A DNA stretch of 19,241 nt from Leptospirales bacterium (GCA_040326155.1 JBEQLE010000018.1:41826-61066); one strand, 5' to 3'; shown: positions 969 through 13,360, counted from the first letter of the stretch. Notes: generated by a model not told the origin, from the letters alone. Translations and numbers: made by a program.

Positions 969-1811
969 CTATTCAGATGCGGTAATAAAATAAAACTTTT
1001 CGATTTTTTCGATTCTTTGACGGGCTTGCAAGTAATACCGACTCTCCGGGGGAATTTTTTTATACGCCCTTAACGCTTTGTACAAATCTCGGTGTTCTTT
1101 AGATTTTTCAAGAATAAAACCGAGATAAAACCAGGCACGATCAATTTCGGTATATTCCAAATCGGGGTTACCTTTCGCATATTTAAGATATTGTAAAAGG
1201 TAAGACAAGGCTCGTTCATACTTCTTTCCATTTAACAATAAAGAAACAAGCTGCATGGTGGCTCGAATGGACCATTCTGAATCTGGATATATTGCAATCA
1301 ACTTTTCTCTCATTTCCAATGATTGTTCATAAATATCTTTTTTTTCCGGGTGAGTATCTGTATAGCCATGCCAACCATCGGCAGTAAAATACATCGCTTT
1401 CGCCTTAGTCACATCATCGAGCACTTCGATCTCATCTACCATATCTGTATGGCCCTGCAACGCTCTTACATAATACGCTAAAATAGTAGCTTCCCAGTAA
1501 ATATCTTCATCGCCCTCTTCCATAGCCAGGTTCAAAAACTTTACAGCGGCAATAAAATCGTTTCTATGAATGGAATCTATAGCAATTTCAAGAAATTTCT
1601 TTCCAGGGTCAGGTTGCATGTCATCTGCTTCAAAATCAGCCGGGTAGCCGGAAAAATCAGTTTTCGTATCGTCATTTTCATTATCCGTACTTTCTATAGC
1701 AAAATCGTCGTTATTTAAAGTGGGATAATCTGATGAACCCTGTGCGGACAATACCAACATCGGGAAGATAAACAGAGAAAGGGTAACAAAGGACTTTAAT
1801 CTTTTATTCAT
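969..1811 (-). CDS. Exported TPR-like helical-repeat protein with acidic N-terminal linker
   Basis: N-terminal signal-like sequence MNKRLKSFVTLSLFIFPMLVLSAQG, a D/E-rich linker, and TPR-like helices (YPDSEWSIRATMQLVSLLLNGKKYERALSYL; RAWFYLGFILEK...ALRAYKKI..ESRYYLQARQRI). Overlaps the upstream gene stop by 8 bp (ATGAATAA). Confidence 0.8.
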   Translation of the reverse strand: MNKRLKSFVTLSLFIFPMLVLSAQGSSDYPTLNNDDFAIESTDNENDDTKTDFSGYPADFEADDMQPDPGKKFLEIAIDSIHRNDFIAAVKFLNLAMEEGDEDIYWEATILAYYVRALQGHTDMVDEIEVLDDVTKAKAMYFTADGWHGYTDTHPEKKDIYEQSLEMREKLIAIYPDSEWSIRATMQLVSLLLNGKKYERALSYLLQYLKYAKGNPDLEYTEIDRAWFYLGFILEKSKEHRDLYKALRAYKKIPPESRYYLQARQRIEKIEKFYFITASE

Positions 1812-2466
1812 CGGTATTCAGGAATTTCGAATCATTTCCTGCTCCCTTTTTATCGTCTGGTGATTTCATTGGTTTATCGGGTTGTTTTTCTGTAGTGTTT
1901 GTTGTTGTTGGAATATTTTCAGGAGTTCTCTCTATTGGAATATCACCCTTTTCTGTGGGCTCTCCAGCCATTTCGGTTTCAGGAGTGGGTATTTCGCTAT
2001 CTTCCCTTTTACCCGATTCTGTTTGTGGCAATTCTGGAAGCGCATCATTATTCGTGTTCTGAAATTTGGTATCATCTGTATTTCTATAAGGGTCTTCACC
2101 TAGCTCAAACCCTTCCGGGCGAGTGACAAACCCTTGTTTTTGCTGCTCTCTTATATAATCGGGTACCCGTTCGCCCTCAATATCCGATGACATTTCTTTG
2201 CTGTCAAAATCGAGAGGAAGAATTTCAAGCTCGTTTCGCTGCATATTCTCCTCAATAATTTGTTCTTTGTAAAACATATCAGAAACATCCTCAAAAAGTT
2301 GTTTCCCGCCAGGTTTCGCCGCAGCAGCGCCCATTTTAATACCATACGCGATAGCTACCACGCCAGCAACAGCGGCGAGCATAATGAAAGCCTTCTGGAT
2401 TATGTCTCGAATATGAACCGGGATTTTATCGATATACTTATCTATGAATTGCAAAACTTTGTTCAT
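1804..2466 (-). CDS. Hypothetical single-pass membrane protein with acidic, low-complexity C-terminal region (220 aa)
   Basis: Start reassigned from 2616 to ATG 2466 (MNKVLQF...). It has an SD-like AAGGGG upstream and avoids overlap with bshB1. One TM segment, AFIMLAAVAGVVAIAYGI, followed by an E/D/P/T/K-rich tail. Confidence 0.75.
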   Translation of the reverse strand: MNKVLQFIDKYIDKIPVHIRDIIQKAFIMLAAVAGVVAIAYGIKMGAAAAKPGGKQLFEDVSDMFYKEQIIEENMQRNELEILPLDFDSKEMSSDIEGERVPDYIREQQKQGFVTRPEGFELGEDPYRNTDDTKFQNTNNDALPELPQTESGKREDSEIPTPETEMAGEPTEKGDIPIERTPENIPTTTNTTEKQPDKPMKSPDDKKGAGNDSKFLNTDE

Positions 2467-2504
2467 TTTTCTAATTATCGCCCCTTTTTCGAGTGGCCTT
2501 ATTA

Positions 2505-2533
2505 AAAATACGCAAGTATCATAAAAAGTGCAA
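2505..2533 (-). promoter_or_regulatory. Putative sigma70 promoter for the membrane protein-TPR unit
   Basis: Minus strand TTGCAC (2533-2528), 17 nt spacer, TATTTT (2510-2505). Back-to-back with TTGACT at 2541 on the plus strand. Confidence 0.5.
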
Positions 2534-2540
2534 AAAAAGC

Positions 2541-2570
2541 TTGACTTCGGCCAATCCTGAGAAGCCATTT
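2541..2570 (+). promoter_or_regulatory. Putative sigma70 promoter for bshB1 (divergent; possibly leaderless)
   Basis: TTGACT at 2541-2546, 34 nt upstream of ATG 2575. The -10 is poor (GCCATT/CCATTT) and there is no SD. Confidence 0.35.
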
Positions 2571-2574
2571 TCTT

Positions 2575-3303
2575 ATGAATAAAATGGCTAAAAAGGTGAT
2601 GGCAATAGGAGCTCATCCCGATGATGTTGAATTTGCCATGGGTGGTACCATTACATCTATGATCGAGAATGGTTATGAGGTTATGATTCTTGATTTAACA
2701 AACGGAGAGCCAACACCGCATGGTAGCCCTGAAATAAGAGCCAAAGAGAGTAAAAAGGCCGCCCACCTGCTTGGTGTAACCAGAAAAACTTTAGAGTTTG
2801 AAAACCGTTTCTTATTCGACAATATCGACGTTCGAAAAGCCGTAGCCGGTGAAATACGTGAATTTCGCCCCGACATGCTATTTGTCCATTATCCAGATGA
2901 CGCCCACCCTGACCATTGGGCCGCTTCCATTCTATCGATGGCTTCTAGATTTTACGGTAAATTAAGTAAAGTCGACATTAAAGGGGAACGGTTTTTTGCG
3001 CCTCGCATATTTTATTTTTTTTCTGTCCATTTGCGCATAGCGCCGGTACCCGATTTTTGTCTCGATATTTCACAAACCTTCGACAAAAAGTTAAAAGCGG
3101 TACTGTCTTATGAATCACAATTTCACAACCTGCAAAATAAATATAAAACGGATAAGGAAGATAGCTCTAAAGAACAAGTTCTATCTAATTTTTTGAAAAC
3201 CCAGAATGCGTATTGGGGAAGTAAAATTGGCGTCGCTTACGCTGAACCTTTTTATTCGCCTGAAGTACTTGGTTTTCATAACTTAGATAATCTAGTCTTA
3301 TAA
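2575..3303 (+). CDS. bshB1: PIG-L family N-acetylglucosaminyl deacetylase, bacillithiol BshB1-like
   Basis: GAHPDDVE metal motif, DLTNGEPTPHGSPEIRAKE, DAHPDH, DISQTFDKKLKAVLSYESQF and GSKIGVAYAEPF, all typical of BshB1/LmbE deacetylases. Confidence 0.85.
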   Translation: MNKMAKKVMAIGAHPDDVEFAMGGTITSMIENGYEVMILDLTNGEPTPHGSPEIRAKESKKAAHLLGVTRKTLEFENRFLFDNIDVRKAVAGEIREFRPDMLFVHYPDDAHPDHWAASILSMASRFYGKLSKVDIKGERFFAPRIFYFFSVHLRIAPVPDFCLDISQTFDKKLKAVLSYESQFHNLQNKYKTDKEDSSKEQVLSNFLKTQNAYWGSKIGVAYAEPFYSPEVLGFHNLDNLVL

Positions 3304-3308
3304 AACGT

Positions 3309-4649
3309 ATGAGCCAAAAAGAGGATCTAACCGGGCCTAATCGTGAGATTTCTCAGATAAAATACCCAAAAAACATCCAGTCGATACGCACTGTTTTGCA
3401 GGGGCAGTTTACAAAAAAAATTCAAGCGAAACGTGGTTCACCCGTAATCGTTTCGGGGCACCAGGTCGGCGTTTTTCATCCTGGTATATTGGCTAAAGAG
3501 GTTTTGGCTGGCAAACTGGCCAAAGAGCAAAACGGCATAGCCATCACTCTTGTTCTTGATCACGACCCTACTCATGTCTATTTTAACTACCCTGACTGGA
3601 ATTTAAAAATGGACCACCACCGTTTGGTTAAAAAAGATTGTCATCTGGGCGATATTTTTTTAAAGAAAAAAGGTCTTGCCCGAATTCATTCGGAGCGGTG
3701 GCAATCTCATTTAATAGAATTGTCTAAAAACTGTGAACACTATTTGAACCGGGAAACAACGGAAAATGCCAGGCAAAGCATAGAGACCTTGCTGGATAAT
3801 CGAAACAAATACGATAATTTAATCGATTATCTGGTTTTCAGTCGTATGCAAGACCTTCAAAAAGAGAAGATAGAAATTTTCCCCGTTCGCACGAGTGACC
3901 TGATCGCAACCCCGGAGTGGAAAAACTTTGCCAATGATATTTATGAAAATGGTTCTCGCTTTCGTGAAATATACAATCGAGCTCTTTCTATGTATCGTAC
4001 AGAGCATGGAATTATTAATCATGCTCAACCAGTCCCCGATTTACATGAAGAAGAACTACCCTTTTGGATCTATACGAACCCTGAACTAGAAAGTCGTGAA
4101 AAAGCGTACAAAAATAATTTTGACGCTCAAAAGGCTCTGCCAAGAGCTATTACTTTAAGTTTATTTGTTCGCTTATACCTCTCGGATATTTTTATTCACG
4201 GAACAGGAGGGGCAAGGTATGATGTAGTCACGAATCAAATAATGCATGAATATTTTAATGTTTCGATTAGTCCATATATGGTGGAAACCAGAACTCTGCA
4301 AATTCCTCTTCTTAAAGATTCCACTTTGAATGAAATAAAAATGCTACCAACACTTTCAAATTGGACAACAGAGTATCGCCGTTTTCAATTTCACCCGGAA
4401 CGCAGCCTAAACAAAAATCACCCTTATAGACAAAAAAGAGCAGAATTGATAAAAGAGTTTAAAGTGCAAAAGGGAGCCAAGAAGAAGATACACGATGAAC
4501 TTGAGAAAAATCGAAAAACCATTCTGAATGATTTAAAACACGAAAATGAAACAAGGTTGGCGACAAGATCAAAAATTCTAGAATACGAAAAAGATCGCGA
4601 AGCTCTATATAATCGTACTTTTCCCTATTTTTTTTATGACTGGCGATAA
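3309..4649 (+). CDS. Divergent BshC-like protein (putative cysteine/amino-acid ligase, Rossmann/HUP fold)
   Basis: Starts 5 nt after bshB1. Motifs in BshC-like order: VIVSGHQVGVFHPGILAK (cf. TGQQxGxxxGP...K), LVLDHD (cf. EDHD), IFIHGTGGARYD (cf. FxxGPGExxY), then a basic helical/coiled-coil region and terminal NRTFPYFFY. The CDS is certain; the function is inferred. Confidence 0.6.
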   Translation: MSQKEDLTGPNREISQIKYPKNIQSIRTVLQGQFTKKIQAKRGSPVIVSGHQVGVFHPGILAKEVLAGKLAKEQNGIAITLVLDHDPTHVYFNYPDWNLKMDHHRLVKKDCHLGDIFLKKKGLARIHSERWQSHLIELSKNCEHYLNRETTENARQSIETLLDNRNKYDNLIDYLVFSRMQDLQKEKIEIFPVRTSDLIATPEWKNFANDIYENGSRFREIYNRALSMYRTEHGIINHAQPVPDLHEEELPFWIYTNPELESREKAYKNNFDAQKALPRAITLSLFVRLYLSDIFIHGTGGARYDVVTNQIMHEYFNVSISPYMVETRTLQIPLLKDSTLNEIKMLPTLSNWTTEYRRFQFHPERSLNKNHPYRQKRAELIKEFKVQKGAKKKIHDELEKNRKTILNDLKHENETRLATRSKILEYEKDREALYNRTFPYFFYDWR

Positions 4650-4746: not shown

Positions 4747-5835
4747 GTGAAAAACCAATTATCAGTAAAGTTAGAGTCCAACTCATACACTATCCAATGG
4801 GATCCCGATTTTGACGCTCTGGCTGAGTGGGTTCTACGTAATAAAAACAAACAAAAGAATGGTCTAATTACGAATGAACTGGTTTATAGTTTATATAAAG
4901 ATAAAATAGCAAAACTTTTTCCAGATTTCGAGATTTTCACCATCCCTGATGGCGAAGCGCAAAAAAATATTCATACTGTAGAATCTTTGGCGCAACGTTT
5001 GCTTGAGTGCGGTTTTACCCGAAATTCTTGTTTATGGGCTTTGGGCGGCGGTGTAATTGGCGACATTACAGGTTTTTTAGCCTCTATATATATGCGCGGT
5101 ATCGATTATTTTCAAATACCAACTACTCTTTTATCTATGGTCGATAGTTCTGTTGGCGGTAAAACTGGTGTAAACTTACCCAAAGGTAAAAACATGATTG
5201 GGGCATTTTACCAGCCTCAAGGTGTATTTATAAATATAACTTTCTTAAACACACTCGAACAACAAGAGATTAAATGCGGTCTAAGTGAAATTATAAAAAG
5301 CGCCCTTATACTTGATAGTGAATTTTACGAATACATTGAAAATTCCTGTGAAAAAATTCTGGAAAAAGACCTGGATGTGTTTTCTCAGCTCTCTTATCGT
5401 TCTGTTGCCATAAAAGCCTTTGTGGTAGGGAAAGACGAAAAAGAACAAGGGCTTCGAGCCATCTTGAATCTAGGCCATACTCTTGCCCATGCGCTCGAAA
5501 GTCATTATGGTTATAAAGCTATAAAACATGGTGAAGCGGTTTCGGCCGGTATTCATTTTGCCACCCTTCTCTCTTCAAAAATAGAGGGCTTTTCGGACCA
5601 GAAAAGAGTAGAAAATCTTTTGGATGCTCTAAAATTAACTAGCCGGTTTTCCCAGCTGCCTGAAGAAAACCGTCCACAAATAGATACTTTAATACAATTC
5701 ATGAAAGGCGATAAGAAAAATATTGACAGTGATATTCGATTTGTTTTATTGAGGCAGATTGGAAATTGTAAATTACCTGAGAAAATCGCCGATAAAGAGA
5801 TATGGGAAATACTGGAAACATACCTAAAGAGCTAA
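4747..5835 (+). CDS. aroB: 3-dehydroquinate synthase
   Basis: GTG start. Motifs PDGEAQKN, ALGGGVIGDITGF, PTTLLSMVDSSVGGKTGVN, KNMIGAFYQP, LNLGHTLAHALE, HGEAV and DKK. Confidence 0.97.
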   Translation: MKNQLSVKLESNSYTIQWDPDFDALAEWVLRNKNKQKNGLITNELVYSLYKDKIAKLFPDFEIFTIPDGEAQKNIHTVESLAQRLLECGFTRNSCLWALGGGVIGDITGFLASIYMRGIDYFQIPTTLLSMVDSSVGGKTGVNLPKGKNMIGAFYQPQGVFINITFLNTLEQQEIKCGLSEIIKSALILDSEFYEYIENSCEKILEKDLDVFSQLSYRSVAIKAFVVGKDEKEQGLRAILNLGHTLAHALESHYGYKAIKHGEAVSAGIHFATLLSSKIEGFSDQKRVENLLDALKLTSRFSQLPEENRPQIDTLIQFMKGDKKNIDSDIRFVLLRQIGNCKLPEKIADKEIWEILETYLKS

Positions 5836-6257
5836 ATATAACCGTAATACACGGCCCGAACTTAAATATGCTGGGTCGACGCGAGAAATCGCATTACGGA
5901 GATTTCTCTTTGGCCGATCTTGAGAAATATCTAATAGACGATAATACAGAAGTCAACTTGACTTTTTTTCAAAGCAACTCTGAAGGTGAACTTGTTTCAT
6001 TTATTCAGAATTTGAAAAAGCAAGACGGCATAGTCATAAACGCAGGCGCTTATACACATACCAGTATCGCGATGCGAGACTCTTTTTTAAGCGTTCAAAT
6101 ACCATTTGTCGAAGTACATATTAGCAATGTTTATTCCAGAGAAGATTTTAGAAAAAAATCATACCTTGCAGATATTGCCGTAGGGGTAATTTCAGGGCTC
6201 GGCAAAGAAAGTTATAATTTGGCTATCAAATATTTTATATCTTGTAAGCGCCCATGA
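5802..6257 (+). CDS. aroQ: Type II 3-dehydroquinate dehydratase
   Basis: HGPNLNMLGRRE..HYG, QSNSEGEL, INAGAYTHTSIAMRD and EVHISNVYSREDFR. Overlaps aroB by 34 bp. Confidence 0.97.
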   Translation: MGNTGNIPKELNITVIHGPNLNMLGRREKSHYGDFSLADLEKYLIDDNTEVNLTFFQSNSEGELVSFIQNLKKQDGIVINAGAYTHTSIAMRDSFLSVQIPFVEVHISNVYSREDFRKKSYLADIAVGVISGLGKESYNLAIKYFISCKRP

Positions 6258-7540
6258 ACGACCTCGCCGTAAAAAATGAATTCGGTAAGTATATTCTCTC
6301 TGATTTGGGAGATAGAAAAGCATATATCTCAACGACAGAAAAACTTTCGAAATATTACATGGTGAAAGCGTTAAAACGCGACGCCGTGTTCATACAATCG
6401 AAATTAAAAACACTGCATGTTTTTCTGGAAAGTAACTTTAATAATTTAAACGACTTTTTAACTAAGCTTGATCTGCTCAGTGAATTTCTAGAAGAAAAAA
6501 ACAGTGCTGATTTTTCAAAATTTATGGGGAAATACTTTCTTTCTACGCTGGAAAAAGAGAAGGCAGCTATTTTAACAATTGAAGTTCCAAAAATCAGTTA
6601 CAAATTCGATAATCCCTATTATGCTCCCGGAAATGATATGCTGCTGCGCTTTGCGCAAGCTTTTCAAAAAGCTCCGCCCTTGTCCGCTCTACCCGAATCA
6701 TCATCTACAGATACCGACGCCGGTAAAGTTCCAGCACCAGTTAAAAAAATTATCGTAGTGACACCGGCAGACCCTATGGCGATGCCAGGAAAACATGTTC
6801 TCGAGCGTTTTACGACAGATTTTGCCTCGGCTGCAGTTCTTGATTTATCTAAAAAAGAAAAATCTGTGGAAACTTCAGTTACTAAACGGGTTGTAGAAAA
6901 GAAAACCAGCGTAGTGACTATCGATGCTTCCGATATGCCTGGTTTAATATTACTTAAAAAATTCGGTCCCCTGTTCCACGGTGCCCCGATTTTAAAAGAA
7001 GAAACAGAAGAAGATGCAAAAGTAACAATACCGTCTGCGGTACGCACCATTAGTTTTCAAATGTATGTAAATATTACAAACAAGATGACGCGCTTTTCTC
7101 GAAATAAAGATCAGAATGGTTACAAACAGTGGTACATTACTCTTTCAAAAGAACATAGAATTGCTCTTCAAATTAACAACTTAATTAATAAAGAAAAAGA
7201 CGGCCCGGTCCAATGGAATGCTTTTTTTCATAAAATTACTTATATGGAAAAAATAGATGTTATGCTTTTGGAACGAATTAAATTTGATATTGAATATTAC
7301 AAAATTCTACTTATAAAAATTAAAACTACCTTTCAAAAAGCCATTACTCAGGGCGAACCCATCGCTCAGGTCCAGGCTTTGTATGCTCCTCTCGTTAAAC
7401 TACTCGACCTGGCTTCTTCTTCGGAAGAAAAAGCAATTACGCTTCAAATGACGTTACTTCAATTATCGAACGCCAATGCGAAAGAATACTTAAAAACAGA
7501 ACTACTCAAACTAATAAGCGAATTTGATTCTCGTAGATAA
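6254..7540 (+). CDS. Hypothetical cytoplasmic protein (428 aa) with three central 20-aa repeats
   Basis: Long ORF with an ATGA overlap on the aroQ stop. No signal peptide or TM segment. Repeats xPGxxhLx(R/K)FxxxFxxAxxL at aa 124, 177 and 228. Confidence 0.85.
   Translation: MNDLAVKNEFGKYILSDLGDRKAYISTTEKLSKYYMVKALKRDAVFIQSKLKTLHVFLESNFNNLNDFLTKLDLLSEFLEEKNSADFSKFMGKYFLSTLEKEKAAILTIEVPKISYKFDNPYYAPGNDMLLRFAQAFQKAPPLSALPESSSTDTDAGKVPAPVKKIIVVTPADPMAMPGKHVLERFTTDFASAAVLDLSKKEKSVETSVTKRVVEKKTSVVTIDASDMPGLILLKKFGPLFHGAPILKEETEEDAKVTIPSAVRTISFQMYVNITNKMTRFSRNKDQNGYKQWYITLSKEHRIALQINNLINKEKDGPVQWNAFFHKITYMEKIDVMLLERIKFDIEYYKILLIKIKTTFQKAITQGEPIAQVQALYAPLVKLLDLASSSEEKAITLQMTLLQLSNANAKEYLKTELLKLISEFDSRR
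6623..6994 (+). repeat. Three protein-level repeats in the hypothetical gene (6623-6682, 6782-6841, 6935-6994)
   Basis: APGNDMLLRFAQAFQKAPPL / MPGKHVLERFTTDFASAAVL / MPGLILLKKFGPLFHGAPIL, with start-to-start spacing of 53 and 51 aa. Confidence 0.8.
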
Positions 7541-7541
7541 T

Positions 7542-8327
7542 TCAAGTTCCGGTAGAGTGGTATTTTCTCATCCCAAAACGAAATAATACGAATGCAATTG
7601 CAAACATACCTATACCAACCGGTAGACTCAAGTATTTTAGATAATCGCTAAAAATCATTGTTTTGTCTAAAAATATATGGGCCGGGTAGTAATTGATAAA
7701 TGCCAACGGAAAAATAAACGTCAATACAAAAGGGATTGGAAATTGATAAATATTTACCGGATAAATAATGAACTCTTTAGCACTATACACAAAAAAATGA
7801 ACCAGGGACTCCGTAGATACAGCCCAAAAAGCAAACGAGGCGACAGTTAATCGAATGGCAGCTAAAATCAGTGTTCCCCCCGCCCAGAGTCCGATTACTG
7901 TAATAACGGCGTTCAATGTAAGTTCTATATGCAGGGTCGATGCAGAATACATAAAGAATAAAACACCTAATATAAGATGGGCAATGGCAGCCGGATCAAA
8001 TTTCATACTCAGCAATGCGCCCAACGGACTAACCGGACGAATCAAAAGATAATCCCAGCTACCCGTTTTAATAACTTCGTCAAATCTGACCAATGGGCCA
8101 AACAACAAAGTGTTCATTCCCTGCGCCATTAATATAAATGAATATAAAAATGCCAGCTCGTAGATGTCCCACCCGTTTATTTCATTAAATGCATTTACAG
8201 TAAAACCAACTATAGAAAATTGTGTAATATAATACAGCACCATGGTTAACAGCGAAATAAAAAATGACCCTCGGTATTCTAACCGCGTCAAAATTGATTT
8301 CTGTATCATTGCTGCGTAAGCACGCAT
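7542..8327 (-). CDS. ABC-2 type transporter permease (ABC2_membrane_6/DUF990-like)
   Basis: About six hydrophobic segments. Family-like motifs LEYRGSF, INGWDIYE, IKTGSWDYLLIRPVSP, YPVNIY, FIFPLAFINYYPA, and a C-terminal GMRKYHSTGT. Confidence 0.9.
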   Translation of the reverse strand: MRAYAAMIQKSILTRLEYRGSFFISLLTMVLYYITQFSIVGFTVNAFNEINGWDIYELAFLYSFILMAQGMNTLLFGPLVRFDEVIKTGSWDYLLIRPVSPLGALLSMKFDPAAIAHLILGVLFFMYSASTLHIELTLNAVITVIGLWAGGTLILAAIRLTVASFAFWAVSTESLVHFFVYSAKEFIIYPVNIYQFPIPFVLTFIFPLAFINYYPAHIFLDKTMIFSDYLKYLSLPVGIGMFAIAFVLFRFGMRKYHSTGT

Positions 8328-8328
8328 T

Positions 8329-11300
8329 TTATGAAACTGTTAAAACTGGCTGGGTATTTACCGTTTCTTCTTTTTTGCGGCGAAGTTTTTCGGTATACTC
8401 TTTTAAGAAATAATCGATGGTTTCGACTCTAATCTTTATGGAACCGGTCGGATTATTTTCATCAATATCTTTAAAAGAAAAATGTGGAGTGTTTTGCGTC
8501 TCGACAATTTTTTCAATAGCAGAATATAAAGTGGAATCGTGTCCGCATTTAAAGCTGGAAAGTTCCAGTGGAATGAGGTTCGGGTGACGGGCTGTAAACT
8601 TCGCAGCCCAGATTTTCTGGGAACTGGCGGCTGAATATGAATTTTTCCAGACATCGGTAATATCCATGGGATGGTACTGCTCATCTCCGGGGTAGGAAAA
8701 CAGCTCTTTTAAAAACTCAGGATCTGTCGGAAGTGAATTTGTGGTCAAGATCGGATAACCCCGGCTCTGAAACTGTTCCAATATGGAATGATTCAGACCT
8801 TCATCATTATGATACACTCTTCCGAGCATTACAATGGCTACTCGCTTTTCTCGCTCCACCTGCCGAATAATTTGCAAGCCTTTTCTCTCCATGGATGATT
8901 TATATTTTTTAAGGGCATGAAAACCGGCTTTGACCGCAAAGTGGTTCTCTCGAATGTTCATATTAAACCGTTCACCAAAAGTATTGAAAAGTCCTTTTTC
9001 AGCAATGCCGGGAGAATCAAGAAACAATACGGGTTTTAAAAACTCTATATTTTTTTCGGCAAAAACATCCTTTTCTTTTGTATATGCTGAATAGGCCATT
9101 TCAGGGCCACCATTTGCAGTCGGACAAGCCCTGTGGTCAATGGCATTTACAATGCCCGAGTCGTAAGCGCTGATCATTGGAAAGAAAAGATAATTGTAAT
9201 GAGTTTGTTCCCATTTTTTTAGCAGGTTATAAATATGCGCCATAGATAACTTGGCAGGAAAACATGGATCGACAATACCGTTTCTAGAACCGTCTTTATA
9301 TAACTTTTCCGTAGAAAGATCACTGAAGATAATATTTTCAAAGGGAATACCCAAAAATTGAAAGTACGCCGTAAAAAATGGCTGTAACCCATACAGGTCT
9401 AAAGTACGCGGTATGGCAATTTTAATTTGATTACGATTTGTCTTCGCGCGATTCTTATTTGTTTTTTCCGCTTCCAGTTTCTTTTTATAAGAAAAAACTT
9501 TTTGCATGCGAGTTGCAGCGAGAGTTTGATCTTCCCAGACCACACGAGCCGCGACTTCAGATAGATTAAGATTCTCTTTCTTAATTTTCTCTGACTTCAA
9601 GCGAATTTCGCGTAGATCATTTTTTTCTTCCACTTCGCCTTTCTCACAAGGCGCAACAATAAAACGACGCGGTTGTGTTTCATGTTCCGTGTTAATATCG
9701 ATAAATGTACGAATGCATTTGTTTTTGCAAAAATTGCAACGAGTACTTTCATTGTATGTTGTTTTATACTCGATTGTTTCCGTTTCATCCAGGCCCAGAA
9801 ATGCTGTATTACCTTTGTTGGTTACCTTGGTTACCCTGGCCGCTTCTAGAGCCGCTCCTATAGCTCCACATACACTGGTGTGTCGGTGTATTATAACTTC
9901 CGGAGTTATGCCCGTCCCCTCAAATTTATCATGTAAATAGTCAACTTGAGATTTCGCCGCAGCAATATTTTTTTGCGTTCCACCCTGCAATACAAACCGT
10001 TTTCCCAAAATTGATGGGTTTGGTATCTGTGCTACATATTGCCAGATGTTTCGCGGTAAAACTTCCGCCAGGCCGGCCATAATTTCAGGGGCTTCCCAGC
10101 CCTGTCTTTGAAAATCTACGATATCTGTTTGTAAAAAAACTGCGCAACCATAACCAAATCTGGGGTTACGTTTCGCAGAAAAGGCAATCTGGGCATAATC
10201 TTCAACTTTATAACCAAACCCTTCTGCTGTGTTTTGCAAAAAGTATCCATTTCCTGCTGAACACTGGGTATTGAGTTTAAAATCTTTCACTTTTCCATTT
10301 TTAATATGAATTAATTTAATATCCTGTCCGCCGACATCTACAATAACGTCGATATCATTATAATAATGTTTTGCTGCAAGCGTATGCGCTACAGTTTCAA
10401 CAACAGCAACATCGCCGCCAACAATTTCTTTAATAAGGTCTTTCGCATAACCGGTCGTTCCAACGCCGAGTATTTCAAGTGTTGCGCCGGAACTCTCGAT
10501 GCTACTTCTCAGTGATTTTATAATTTCAATAACATCATCAATGGGGTTACCTTTCGATAATAGATACTCAGCGCCAATTAACTCTCCTTCGGGGTCAAGT
10601 AAAATGCCTTTGGTACTGGTAGAGCCGCCGTCTAAACCCAGATAAGCGATGACATTTTCTCCTTTGTAAAAAATGGGAGCTTCCCACTCAGGAGGAACAA
10701 ATTTATTCTTAAAATCGTAATACTCTGAGGTACGATCGGGCAAGTTCGAAGGTCCCTCAATGGATAAACGTCTTTTATCGATAAACGCCTTAAAATGTTC
10801 AGAGCCAGTGTACGTTGAGTTTACTTTATCAATATCATATTCACGGCGTACAAGAATGGACCCCATGGCTGCAAAATACTCACCCATATCAGGCGCATAA
10901 ATAAGTTCCTCAATAGAACGTGAAGCTACGTCCATTTTTTTTTCTTTCCATAGTAAAGAAAGATTATGGCGCCACGCTTCTTGCATGCCGGGTAAAAAAG
11001 TATTGGGTCCGCCAAGTAACATTACTTCGGGAGCCATCGTATTTCCGCGAGTCAAAACGCTGAGATTTTGTTGCACAATCGCGTCAAACAAAGATATCAT
11101 TAATTCATTTGGGGGAACGCCACTTTTTTGAAGAGAATTAATATCAGTTTCAGCAAACACACCGCATTTTCCAGCTACGGGATGAACCTTTTCAGGATCG
11201 TAGTGAATCTCTTTTAATTGATCAGGCGTGAGATTTAATTTCCCGGCAATTTTATCGATGACTGCGCCAGTACCGCCAGCGCATTTATCGTTCATGGTCA

Positions 11301-11703
11301 TTATCTTTTTAGTGCGATCTGTTTTTTCATCTCGCTTCAGTATAATAATTTTAGCATCTTGCCCGCCCAGCTCAATAACCGAAGAGACATTTGGGTATTG
11401 CGTTTGTACGGCGTTACTCACACAAAGGACTTCCTGAAAATATTGTGCGCCAACCGGTTCTACCAGGCCCGATCCACCGGAACCTGTAATCGAAATAGCA
11501 ATTTTGTCACTACCGGTATAAAACAGGTCGGGAAATTTAATTTCAAGATCGACAAGGTATTCCCAGAGCTTTTCAGCTTGCCGGGTTTCGTGTCTTTCAT
11601 AGCGCTGCCAGTGAGTTTTTAATTCACCATCTTCTTCTTCCTGAAAAACTCCTTTTACGGTAGTGGACCCAACATCGAGTCCAAGAAAATATTTTTTATC
11701 CAT
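8329..11703 (-). CDS. Tandem BadF/BadG/BcrA/BcrD (ASKHA) ATPase activator domains fused to a DUF2229-like reductase domain; PlsA/Ger-like
   Basis: Domain 1: GLDVGSTTVK, ITGSG, ELGGQDAK, MNDKCAGGTG, CGVFAETD. Domain 2: GLDGGSTSTK, GTTGY, ETVAH, DVGGQDIK, NTQCSAGNG, CAVFLQTD, QGGTQKN, GAIGAAL. Linker CNFCKNKC...PCEKG. C-terminal region IAIPR, CFPAKLSMAH, CPT, GRVYH, SFKCGHDS, IDEN. Start placed at ATG 11703, 1 nt after the upstream stop; 11730 is an alternative. Confidence 0.92.
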   Translation of the reverse strand: MDKKYFLGLDVGSTTVKGVFQEEEDGELKTHWQRYERHETRQAEKLWEYLVDLEIKFPDLFYTGSDKIAISITGSGGSGLVEPVGAQYFQEVLCVSNAVQTQYPNVSSVIELGGQDAKIIILKRDEKTDRTKKIMTMNDKCAGGTGAVIDKIAGKLNLTPDQLKEIHYDPEKVHPVAGKCGVFAETDINSLQKSGVPPNELMISLFDAIVQQNLSVLTRGNTMAPEVMLLGGPNTFLPGMQEAWRHNLSLLWKEKKMDVASRSIEELIYAPDMGEYFAAMGSILVRREYDIDKVNSTYTGSEHFKAFIDKRRLSIEGPSNLPDRTSEYYDFKNKFVPPEWEAPIFYKGENVIAYLGLDGGSTSTKGILLDPEGELIGAEYLLSKGNPIDDVIEIIKSLRSSIESSGATLEILGVGTTGYAKDLIKEIVGGDVAVVETVAHTLAAKHYYNDIDVIVDVGGQDIKLIHIKNGKVKDFKLNTQCSAGNGYFLQNTAEGFGYKVEDYAQIAFSAKRNPRFGYGCAVFLQTDIVDFQRQGWEAPEIMAGLAEVLPRNIWQYVAQIPNPSILGKRFVLQGGTQKNIAAAKSQVDYLHDKFEGTGITPEVIIHRHTSVCGAIGAALEAARVTKVTNKGNTAFLGLDETETIEYKTTYNESTRCNFCKNKCIRTFIDINTEHETQPRRFIVAPCEKGEVEEKNDLREIRLKSEKIKKENLNLSEVAARVVWEDQTLAATRMQKVFSYKKKLEAEKTNKNRAKTNRNQIKIAIPRTLDLYGLQPFFTAYFQFLGIPFENIIFSDLSTEKLYKDGSRNGIVDPCFPAKLSMAHIYNLLKKWEQTHYNYLFFPMISAYDSGIVNAIDHRACPTANGGPEMAYSAYTKEKDVFAEKNIEFLKPVLFLDSPGIAEKGLFNTFGERFNMNIRENHFAVKAGFHALKKYKSSMERKGLQIIRQVEREKRVAIVMLGRVYHNDEGLNHSILEQFQSRGYPILTTNSLPTDPEFLKELFSYPGDEQYHPMDITDVWKNSYSAASSQKIWAAKFTARHPNLIPLELSSFKCGHDSTLYSAIEKIVETQNTPHFSFKDIDENNPTGSIKIRVETIDYFLKEYTEKLRRKKEETVNTQPVLTVS

Positions 11704-11704
11704 A

Positions 11705-13360
11705 TTATAGTATTTTTCCTTTTTTGCCATTCATTGTCCAATAAAAATAATGGCTAAAATTCATTGCGTGACCTTTTTTTTCGGGAAATTTTTCAATAGC
11801 CGAAATGGGATTAGACATACTTTCTTTTAACTTGTTCCAGTCATCTAATGTATAATCGAATTCACCTAAAACCGCTTCAAGCTCATCGCGCATTTTTTCC
11901 CGGGCTTCACCCAAAGCCATCTGCACCCTGGAAAGAGCGTTAATCTTACCTTCACCTGAAGTTTCGACGGGTAAAAAAACCATATTGTCAAAATCTTCCA
12001 CAACTTTTGCTTGAATTGCATCTGAAATAGTCGAAGGCATACAACCAAACGGTTTTATCGATAAAACCATATGAGCTAATCTGTTTTTAGTATAATAAAT
12101 ATTTTTTGCAACTTCCAGAAAACCTTCACCGGAATCATATAACCGATCCATATATTTATCCCCAATTTTGGCAAGATACTCAATAGATGGAGTTTTACGT
12201 ACAAAACCTCCCATCCAGTCTGAGAAACGACTATAATAACGTCTGTAATACCAGTCGGCAAAGTCAATTTGCAGACGACTGACTTGAAATCTCCACTTTT
12301 TCTTTATAATCGAAATAGGGTTAAGCACAGAAAATTTATTGTCACCATTATTACCGGGTGAAATAAATTTTTCTTTTTCGAGACTTTTGGATAGCCACAA
12401 CAAATATGAAATCCAGGTACTGACTGGTTCTACAATAATTTCACAACCCTCTTCATGCAGATAAGAAAACATTTGGTAATTCCCGTCACCCTCGGTTAAG
12501 GCAGCCCAGAATTCTCCTGTAATTTTGACTACAGGTTTTGGGTTCATATAATCTACTTTTATATTTGCTATTTTTTGTTTACAGATTTCAAGAGCAGTTT
12601 TAATTTCGCCAGATTTTTTCTGATCTATTAAATTAACAATGATATCACCCAGGCCGCTTTTCAACAATTTTCTGGTTAATTTGCTTTCTAATTTTCTCAA
12701 TGGAGTTTTTCTGGAAAGATGTTCAATAACGATAGATTTACACTCTTTATAGACTTTTTCAGTTTCACCGGCATTTACTTCATATGGTTGAACTCTATAC
12801 CTCATGGCATTTAGAATATCGCCTACCATGACAGCATTTAAAATTGTACGATAAAACTCTAGATCCATTTTGATGCCAACATCATCACTGCTTGACTCCA
12901 TCCCTTCTCCGGTAGAGTTAATTAAGATCATCCGAAAGCCATGATAACCCGCTTTTTCTAAAGCATTCTGGTATTGGTATTCATACATACCAAAACGACA
13001 TGGTCCGCAAGAGCTGGCAAAAAAGAAGGCATAGTTTTCGACAATTTCCTGGGCGCTTAGCCCCTCTTTTCGAAGATTTTCAAGATAATGAAGTAAATTA
13101 CCTACCACAAAATAGGTTGGACTGCAAAGTCCAGAATCGCAAAACTCTTTACCACGTTGCATGGACTCATTGCGAGGTATGGGCAAAGCGGATGTATTAT
13201 AACCTAACGCACAAAAACTAGCCGCAATAATCTCATCAATGGCATTTGAAAGTCCGCCAACAAGGAACTTCATGTTCTTTTTTTTATTTGTGCTGAGCCT
13301 GGCAGGCTCTACTCGACGATAAGGAATCGATTTATTTTTTTCAGCGAAGGTGTTTTCCAA
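11705..13360 (-). CDS. 2-hydroxyacyl-CoA dehydratase (HgdAB/D)-like Fe-S reductase subunit; PlsR-like
   Basis: TTG start. Motifs GLCSPTYFVVGNL, SSCGPCRFGMYE, KPVVKITGEFW, GEGFLEV, KPFGCMPS and ETSGEG..NALSRVQMAL. Directly coupled to the activator gene. Confidence 0.88.
   Translation of the reverse strand: MENTFAEKNKSIPYRRVEPARLSTNKKKNMKFLVGGLSNAIDEIIAASFCALGYNTSALPIPRNESMQRGKEFCDSGLCSPTYFVVGNLLHYLENLRKEGLSAQEIVENYAFFFASSCGPCRFGMYEYQYQNALEKAGYHGFRMILINSTGEGMESSSDDVGIKMDLEFYRTILNAVMVGDILNAMRYRVQPYEVNAGETEKVYKECKSIVIEHLSRKTPLRKLESKLTRKLLKSGLGDIIVNLIDQKKSGEIKTALEICKQKIANIKVDYMNPKPVVKITGEFWAALTEGDGNYQMFSYLHEEGCEIIVEPVSTWISYLLWLSKSLEKEKFISPGNNGDNKFSVLNPISIIKKKWRFQVSRLQIDFADWYYRRYYSRFSDWMGGFVRKTPSIEYLAKIGDKYMDRLYDSGEGFLEVAKNIYYTKNRLAHMVLSIKPFGCMPSTISDAIQAKVVEDFDNMVFLPVETSGEGKINALSRVQMALGEAREKMRDELEAVLGEFDYTLDDWNKLKESMSNPISAIEKFPEKKGHAMNFSHYFYWTMNGKKGKIL

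Follow-up and report, generated by a model that had tools for sequence, protein, structure and literature searches.

Outside the strict anaerobes it is unsettled which enzymes form the ether bonds in bacterial lipids, and this includes the brGDGTs (branched glycerol dialkyl glycerol tetraethers) used as palaeoclimate proxies. Two adjacent genes in a Leptospirales bacterium raise the question of whether they encode such an enzyme. The pair lies in a stretch of 19,241 nucleotides (GCA_040326155.1, JBEQLE010000018.1:41826-61066), called the window throughout, in which positions 8329-13360 are filled by two minus-strand open reading frames (ORFs), P0001 and P0002. A first-pass annotation, made from this sequence alone, had proposed an ether-lipid module of the PlsA/PlsR (plasmalogen synthase) or Ger (glycerol ester reductase) type, hidden under a generic CoA-activase label. 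Here we computed the domains, conserved ligands and folds of the two proteins, their homology and clade, and the linkage and fusions of their genes, and these point to one complete ATP-driven, iron-sulfur, low-potential reductase of the superfamily that holds the benzoyl-CoA reductases (BCR), the 2-hydroxyacyl-CoA dehydratases (HAD) and the double-cubane cluster proteins (DCCP). This reductase would make lipid ethers from esters, a reading that we give a probability of roughly 0.55. Judged by homology, the pair is a distant PlsA/PlsR relative in a large sister branch, and an ether-lipid role is likely.

The pair is laid out as follows, with Act for an activator domain and Red for a catalytic module:

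11705-13360, minus strand: P0001, the Red2 subunit, a predicted PlsR equivalent of the "long" type; 551 aa, TTG start
8329-11730, minus strand: P0002, Act1-Act2-linker-Red1; 1133 aa from ATG 11730, 1124 aa from ATG 11703
10882-11682, minus strand: activator domain 1 (ASKHA/BcrAD_BadFG), residues 17-283, the NCBIfam stretch; cluster cysteines C150 and C189
9841-10641, minus strand: activator domain 2, residues 364-630, the best Pfam stretch; cluster cysteines C490 and C529
9646-9738, minus strand: four-cysteine linker, C665-x2-C668-x3-C672...C695, read from the sequence
8332-9423, minus strand: Red1 domain, residues 770-1133, with Pfam DUF2229 at 770-999; cysteines C823, C869 and C1062

Of the two possible starts of P0002, ATG 11703 is the more likely; a AAGGAAAA stretch lies upstream of it, and the spacing to P0001 is then the 1 nt originally described, whereas the longest ORF, from ATG 11730, overlaps P0001 by 26 nt.

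What does each protein contain? On P0002, Pfam matches BcrAD_BadFG (PF01869) twice (2e-73) and DUF2229 (PF09989) once (7.7e-41), two of the three families for which the first-pass annotation proposed a scan; the third, HGD-D, is not matched. In NCBIfam, TIGR00241, the acyl-CoA dehydratase activase domain, scores above its cut-off. Every cysteine motif quoted in that annotation is present in the two translations, the activator motifs being KCAGG (C150), KCGVF (C189), QCSAG (C490) and GCAVF (C529). The homologues compared here fall into three clades (classic, named PlsA-type and long-Red2, see below), and all 11 Fe-S cysteines of P0002, including the three of Red1, are conserved across them: C150 and C189 are present in 100%, 100% and 97% of the rows of a clade, and C490, C529 and the linker cysteines C665, C668, C672 and C695 in 100% of each. 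P0002 therefore carries what defines an activator in this superfamily, namely ASKHA domains whose Cys pairs are conserved in 97-100% of rows, and the linker is presumed to be an extra Fe-S site. Sequence comparison relates the activator domains to HgdC, MbdQ/P, HadI and DCCP-R, with Act2 finding HgdC 1hux_A (2.2e-23), MbdQ 9gai_D (1.6e-20) and DCCP-R 7yyl_E (2.4e-12) in the PDB.

The catalytic modules are recognised by fold. An AlphaFold (AF2) model of Red1 (P0002 residues 740-1133; predicted local distance difference test, pLDDT, 86.1) aligns with BzdNO 8s02_B (Z 13.3), HadBC 3o3m_D (12.8), DCCP 7yyl_A (12.2) and MbdON 9g87_B (11.1) over about 270 residues each; superfamily entries span Z 13.3-11.0, and unrelated rows reach 7.2 or less. 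P0001, whose motifs are GLCSPTY (C79), SCGPCR (C118 and C121) and PFGC (C440), matches no family in Pfam or NCBIfam. Searched against the PDB at E<=10, neither P0001 nor a 42-sequence profile built on it brings up a HAD, BCR or DCCP chain; the searches return chance matches only (E>0.5), the profile finds no HadB/C, BzdN/O or MbdO/N sequence, and the ESM Atlas yields nothing beyond P0001's own family and a single 13%-DUF2229 cluster. An AF2 model from the 42-sequence alignment (pLDDT 82.8) nevertheless brings up DCCP, HadB/C, MbdO/N and BzdN/O chains among the first 15 Foldseek rows, at probabilities of 0.95-1.00, and a second aligner gives HadC 3o3n_B (Z 8.7, 286 residues aligned, root-mean-square deviation 5.0), BzdNO 8s02_B (7.8) and DCCP (7.5). 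These Z values (8.7-7.2) are middling, and only the superfamily entries align about 275-291 residues, the other rows at similar Z aligning a single domain of about 110-140. The claim that P0001 is HgdAB-like thus holds by fold and by its homology to PlsR-type proteins, and is not visible at the level of sequence families. Its cysteines C79, C121 and C440 are conserved in all three clades, whereas C118 is specific to the long-Red2 clade, where 97% have it, compared with 17% and 6% in the other two; the pair as a whole shows two modules of HadB/C-type fold with three invariant cysteines each, the catalytic signature of the superfamily. An alignment of the Red2 and Red1 profiles with hhalign was not significant (E 0.25) and joined the first-Cys motif alone.

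Since fold and activators are common property of the superfamily, HadBC/HadI, BzdNOPQ/MbdONPQ and DCCP/DCCP-R all combining this catalytic-subunit fold with an ASKHA activator and its bridging cluster, could the pair be a true 2-hydroxyacyl-CoA dehydratase or a class I benzoyl-CoA reductase? We consider this highly improbable. The benzoyl-CoA reductase equivalogs reach 82-115 bits on P0002, against cut-offs of 313-578; the catalytic modules lack sequence similarity to those of HAD, BCR and DCCP; the tandem activators are, unlike theirs, fused to Red1; and HGD-D (PF06050) has no match anywhere in the 94.7%-complete genome. Grouping with true dehydratases or benzoyl-CoA reductases, which the first-pass annotation had named as the contrary outcome, was not seen by any of these routes. 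Context agrees: in the window no CoA-transferase, dehydrogenase, fermentation or aromatic-degradation gene lies near the pair, and the neighbours are housekeeping genes, as had been noted of amino-acid fermentation and benzoyl-CoA genes. PF06050 also gave no match on a Listeria PlsA-type protein or in the Thermotoga maritima and Lactococcus lactis control genomes; as the Listeria protein too lacks it, we did not accept its absence as a marker of the clade.

A small-molecule reductase like DCCP or YjiM, with a fused activator, is also unlikely. DCCP is among the top folds for both catalytic modules (Z 7.5 for Red2, 12.2 for Red1), and its activator DCCP-R is among the sequence matches of Act2. 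The [8Fe-9S] double cubane, however, requires six Cys per subunit, and the modules here conserve just three (Red1) and three plus one (Red2), which may be too few; moreover, sequence searches did not link the catalytic modules to DCCP, HAD and BCR chains fit equally well or better by fold, and sequence homology favours PlsA/PlsR-type proteins.

PlsA/PlsR has the domain set Act-Act-Red1 plus Red2 (PMC12838417, PMC13159169, in the sections available), encoded in Clostridium perfringens by CPE1194/1195 and in Enterococcus faecalis, L. cremoris and Listeria by a single plsA gene, and the window pair has the same four modules. Named PlsA-type homologues were taken from chromosome-like PLSDB records: a 1475-aa single gene of Listeria monocytogenes, a split pair of Fusobacterium animalis (975 aa, then 404 aa after 1 nt), and single genes in Haliovirga, Collinsella, Paraclostridium and Acetoanaerobium. 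P0002 is colinear with residues 5-979 of the Listeria protein (29.4% identity) and with the 975-aa Fusobacterium protein (29.2%), and P0001 pairs end to end with the 404-aa PlsR-like protein at E 4e-16 (19.7%), as it does with residues 981-1403, the C-terminal part of the Listeria protein (20.9%). Full-length colinearity, all shared Fe-S cysteines and the Pfam matches bear out the proposed PlsA/PlsR domain set, and like PlsA/PlsR the pair is a stand-alone unit without pathway neighbours. It differs in that Red2 is encoded upstream, rather than downstream or C-terminally, and in that the Red2 of its clade, at 523-590 aa against 404, exceeds its counterpart by about 120-190 aa and has a C-terminal extension as well as the fourth cysteine. 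The DUF2229 score is also lower, 140 bits in P0002 against 245-286 in PlsA-type proteins.

Wider searches place P0001 in a large family. Of 8000 candidates scored in a word-indexed search, 6526 proteins of 303-965 aa matched at E<=0.001; among the matches listed, most are about 590 aa and are unnamed or called "activator of 2-hydroxyglutaryl-CoA dehydratase". An exhaustive phmmer search of 1.84 billion cluster representatives gave 1500 matches at E<=1e-3, 762 at <=1e-10 and 159 at <=1e-30. Longer relatives (63 at E<=0.001) are of three kinds: activase-DUF2229 fusions, fusions to a GltD-like oxidoreductase, and classic proteins of 1400-1490 aa, which match P0001 at their C-terminus with 20-24% identity. 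A hidden Markov model (HMM) of the P0001 family scores 480-970 bits within its own clade and 47-125 bits on the C-termini of the 1400-1490-aa activase-DUF2229 proteins. Because this HMM reaches the classic C-termini and the PDB profile search is empty, the catalytic modules are much closer to the PlsR type than to HAD, BCR or DCCP.

Where in this family does the pair belong? Quick IQ-TREE trees (LG+G4, with Shimodaira-Hasegawa-like approximate likelihood-ratio test, SH-aLRT, support only) were built for Red2 (118 rows, with P0023-P0123 thinned to every eighth and two partial proteins dropped) and for the BBD part, that is, two PF01869 domains plus PF09989 (48 rows, among them 12 of 19 tagged loci and, of the classic proteins, those with odd numbers), and were anchored by Listeria, Fusobacterium, Acetoanaerobium, Haliovirga and Collinsella. 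The two trees are congruent and recover the classic (mostly planctomycete-type), named PlsA-type and long-Red2 clades; in both, the window pair falls in the long-Red2 clade, apart from the named PlsA-type group. Within that clade it groups with reductase-first forms (support 95, BBD tree), while the Brevibacillus, GltD-fused and C-terminally fused members are activator-first. Reductase-first order, correctly described at first pass as the reverse of published plsA-plsR and opposite to what the Fusobacterium split pair shows, is derived and common in the clade. The Brevibacillus laterosporus pair (L082:5971-9477 and 9506-11143), 43% and 35% identical to the window proteins, is unannotated and sits in a 1.38-Mb record filed as a plasmid.

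Do the two genes work together? We fetched 80 genome loci carrying a Red2 alignment, mostly from Acidobacteriota, Ignavibacteria and Myxococcota, with single loci from Nitrospiraceae, Phycisphaerae, Binatia and Dadabacteria. A P0002-like BBD gene follows Red2 on the same strand in 75 of them, at 36-62% identity (best tblastn piece), or 46-62% where more than the first roughly 150 residues are in the locus; the gap exceeds 0.7 kb in 13 of the 75. The remaining five (Myxococcota or "proteobacterium" metagenome-assembled genomes, MAGs) have exactly one DUF2229 gene each, elsewhere in the genome. Red2 is also fused to activase-DUF2229, N-terminally in P0124, P0125 and P0150 and C-terminally in nine proteins, and since such fusions exist in both orders, the association of the two halves is near-certain. 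Adjacency, the single DUF2229 gene elsewhere, the fusions and the congruent trees all argue that the halves belong together.

The fusions also speak to the electron source. In a sister subclade Red2 is joined to a GltD-like NAD(P)H/FAD/Fe-S oxidoreductase; the resulting protein of about 1270-1300 aa (L111-L124, for example L112:8001-11864) includes Fer4_20, Pyr_redox_2 and 2x[4Fe-4S] ferredoxin domains. A metagenome scan found this fusion in 19 loci, 12 of which have at least 2.2 kb upstream of the match, and in 11 of these 12 a BBD gene (42-43% identical to P0002) stands directly upstream, L128 being the one without; in one such locus examined, the other neighbours were unrelated. A covalently attached NAD(P)H-flavin-Fe-S module speaks for a stoichiometric supply of electrons, and hence for a reductase rather than a redox-neutral dehydratase. 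For the window this suggests net reductase chemistry, by analogy with the sister subclade.

From these observations we infer complex formation, electron path, substrate and product as follows. The two ASKHA domains of P0002 would pair as an internal pseudo-dimer and bind a [4Fe-4S] cluster through C150/C189 and C490/C529, and P0002 would add the four-Cys linker site and the Red1 module with its three-Cys cluster site. P0001 would supply the second catalytic module, Red2, as the counterpart of PlsR, with the same three-Cys site and the clade-specific fourth cysteine. ATP hydrolysis in the activator would push an electron into a Red1/Red2 heterodimer, where a carbonyl would be reduced through a ketyl radical. 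By homology the substrate is most likely the sn-1 acyl ester of a membrane glycerolipid, and PlsA/PlsR and Ger suggest a vinyl ether (plasmalogen) or an alkyl ether as its product. A lipid-ester substrate and an ether product, drawn from homology at 20-29% identity and from literature correlations, are in our judgement slightly better than an even bet.

The window's own genome fits a ubiquitous substrate. P0002 holds its only DUF2229 match and both of its BcrAD_BadFG matches, so the pair is the only BCR/HAD/DCCP superfamily member there, and a lone member without nearby CoA-substrate pathway genes fits a substrate such as a membrane lipid. Two matches of the pyruvate:ferredoxin oxidoreductase type are also present. 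Among the 41 genomes of the lineage that were compared, the window's included, 11 match at E<=0.001, eight of them at E<=2e-41 and three weakly, to classic proteins of 1445-1447 aa. All three same-family genomes carry the pair, one as a 1683-aa reductase-first fusion. In three loci from genomes of the same order, L108 (genome G030), L109 (G021) and L110 (G029), the BBD matches come in two pieces after Red2 (about 2-729 and 768-1121), which suggests a three-gene split into Red2, Act-Act and Red1.

How does this compare with what is already in print? The BBD core of P0002 is common to the Ger proteins of T. maritima (Tmari_0479/AGL49404) and D. alkenivorans (SHJ90043). The available sections of PMC13159169 give T. 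maritima Ger the architecture BBDHDDH and describe BBD as the core conserved in the Ger homologues of all alkyl-ether producers. Ger is a single polypeptide, BBDHDDH or BBDHDHDH, whereas the window pair encodes its second reductase in a gene of its own, upstream and without a Pfam match; P0002 ends after Red1, without PF06050 or the C-terminal H/D segments of Ger, a feature that discriminates weakly. Table S21 of that paper, in the part available, lists "BBD"-only homologues in Edaphobacter aggregans, where ethers are present, and in Sporomusa ovata. PlsAR homologues have been hypothesised to make the ether bonds of Solibacter usitatus brGDGTs (PMC10087280, sections available), and the available text of a 2026 sponge preprint states that a second reduction domain "is not present" in BBD-only hits. 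Judged by sequence, these BBD-only homologues, called "ger architecture 2" and known from E. aggregans and sponge-symbiont MAGs, very probably belong to the clade of the window pair, as do the proposed S. usitatus PlsAR homologues: an E. aggregans BBD protein, WP_125484386.1, shares 87% identity with a clade member and 54%/44% with P0002, and Solibacteraceae and Bryobacterales loci carry the Red2-BBD pair. In the loci studied here, contrary to the preprint's description, a neighbouring gene that lacks a Pfam model supplies the second module. The label was accordingly hidden only in part: the BBD half already figures in published surveys as a "Ger homolog", and PlsAR homologues are already hypothesised for acidobacterial ether lipids, while the Red2 half has gone unseen by Pfam. 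Sequence cannot separate alkyl from alkenyl products, and the diagnostic features of Ger are described as undetermined, in the available parts of PMC11868695 and PMC13274423.

A number of points weigh against the ether-lipid reading. Identity to PlsA/PlsR-type proteins is just 29% (BBD) and 20% (Red2). The long-Red2 clade stands on stems of 1.92 and 1.21 substitutions per site (SH-aLRT 100), and an approximately unbiased (AU) test rejects grouping of the window BBD with the five named PlsA-type rows (p 2.6e-51, for a group named after the tree was seen), which, with the separation in both trees, agrees with the distinct sub-clade that the first-pass annotation had suspected. The trees were built without C. 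perfringens PlsA/PlsR, E. faecalis PlsA, or the T. maritima and D. alkenivorans Ger proteins, and the extra cysteine C118 may change the chemistry of the Red2 cluster. Genome G029, of the same order as the window, has the long-Red2 type together with a 1458-aa classic type on another contig, which suggests that their roles are not identical. The clade is common in aerobic or microaerophilic groups, and the window's genome has three heme-copper oxidase homologues; PlsA and Ger are oxygen-sensitive, though one PlsA works aerobically, as far as the sources' available sections report, and the Listeria pls orthologues are active anaerobically, according to the part available of a review (PMC9702350). 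The S. ovata "BBD" homologue stands in the available part of PMC13159169 without reported ethers. WP_125484386.1 differs from the Table S21 accession for E. aggregans, WP_064742671.1, and because the accessions differ its link to the published "Ger homolog" is unverified. Our literature searches found no assay report for any member of the clade, and no lipid-synthesis gene adjoins the pair in the window.

Several of these points would suit the same machine with another task, the clade reducing or dehydrating a carbonyl compound other than the substrates of PlsA and Ger. We regard this as possible, with less confidence than the ester-to-ether reading. Its candidates, each tentative, are sn-2 esters, cardiolipin, a membrane-spanning tetraester, wax or ornithine lipid esters, or a non-lipid metabolite. 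In its favour are the deep separation of the clade, its fourth cysteine, its C-terminal extension of about 50 aa on Red2, and its coexistence with the classic type in G029. A radical SAM/SPASM gene and a 93-aa ORF, each found beside the pair in 19 of 80 loci, hint at a wider pathway in some lineages, and the clade occurs in organisms such as Brevibacillus laterosporus, from which, to our knowledge, no ether lipids have been reported. Against it, all cluster ligands and 34 Red2 columns (at least 90% identical) are kept across the three clades; no conserved pathway genes stand beside the pair in the window, the GltD-type loci or most of the 80 loci; and BBD genes correlate with ether producers in published work.

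Around the pair, one neighbour is close enough to be considered part of the operon:

7542-8327, minus strand: P0003, ABC-2 family membrane protein; 261 aa, PF06182 (7.4e-39)

P0003 begins 1 nt past the P0002 stop and is probably a third operon gene specific to the window's lineage. The order Red2-BBD-ABC2 is kept in three of four loci of same-family genomes (59-64% identity), but the case for a functional link is weak because general synteny is also kept among these relatives, and none of the 80 distant Red2 loci has a P0003 homologue. P0003 is an orphan permease, with no ABC ATPase nearby. The flanks are housekeeping genes: LysM/M23, PIG-L, aroB, aroQ, purH, a methyltransferase, MscS, transaldolase and ParA. 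Convergent to the reductase operon run aroB (3-dehydroquinate synthase) and a type II dehydroquinase (4747-6257, plus strand), which overlap by 34 nt. Three window ORFs of 270-446 aa have no Pfam family: 1804-2616 (minus), with a weak match to the LIC_11485-family N-terminal domain (33.9 bits, below the cut-off of 80), and 3309-4649 and 6254-7540 (both plus), which have homologues at syntenic positions in family relatives. The window showed no tRNA gene, Rfam match or meaningful repeat, and a promoter and terminator scan found sites no more numerous than in shuffles; a search for sequencing runs listed none for the operon.

Some companions recur in the 80 loci. The radical SAM/SPASM gene (about 414 aa, for example L016:11970-13214; PF04055 at 6e-17, with no NCBIfam equivalog reached) stands upstream of the pair in 10 loci, between the two genes in four (L064, L072, L079 and L080) and downstream in five. 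The conserved ORF of about 93 aa (for example L002:11408-11689) has no family and lies just downstream of BBD. With those queries, neither was found in the window's genome, the best radical SAM match there scoring 19.8 bits. A glyoxalase/VOC gene (PF00903) lies between or beside the two genes in eight loci (for example L003:8101-8604).

For the window alone, the outcome is one more member of the long-Red2 clade. For the family, the analysis shows that the second module sits in a gene of its own, which Pfam misses and which is nearly always a direct neighbour, and that the pair forms its own clade, with a sister subclade wired to an NAD(P)H oxidoreductase. The gain is a defined two-gene construct for expression, together with a sequence signature by which "Ger-like" metagenome hits can be sorted. 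More speculatively, and with real doubt on our part, the long-Red2 clade may be the ester-to-ether lipid reductase of aerobic and facultative bacteria, brGDGT-producing Acidobacteriota among them, marked by a Cys relay in Red2 and by the GltD donor of one subclade. If so, a fully Cys-ligated Red2 relay cluster would set the clade apart from anaerobic PlsA and Ger, the fused NAD(P)H-GltD-type donor would reveal the physiological electron source, and the radical SAM gene adjacent to the pair in about a quarter of the fetched loci would become a candidate partner in building membrane-spanning lipids. On this reading the window foretells ether lipids, so far unreported, in a lineage that respires and is probably related to the spirochaetes.

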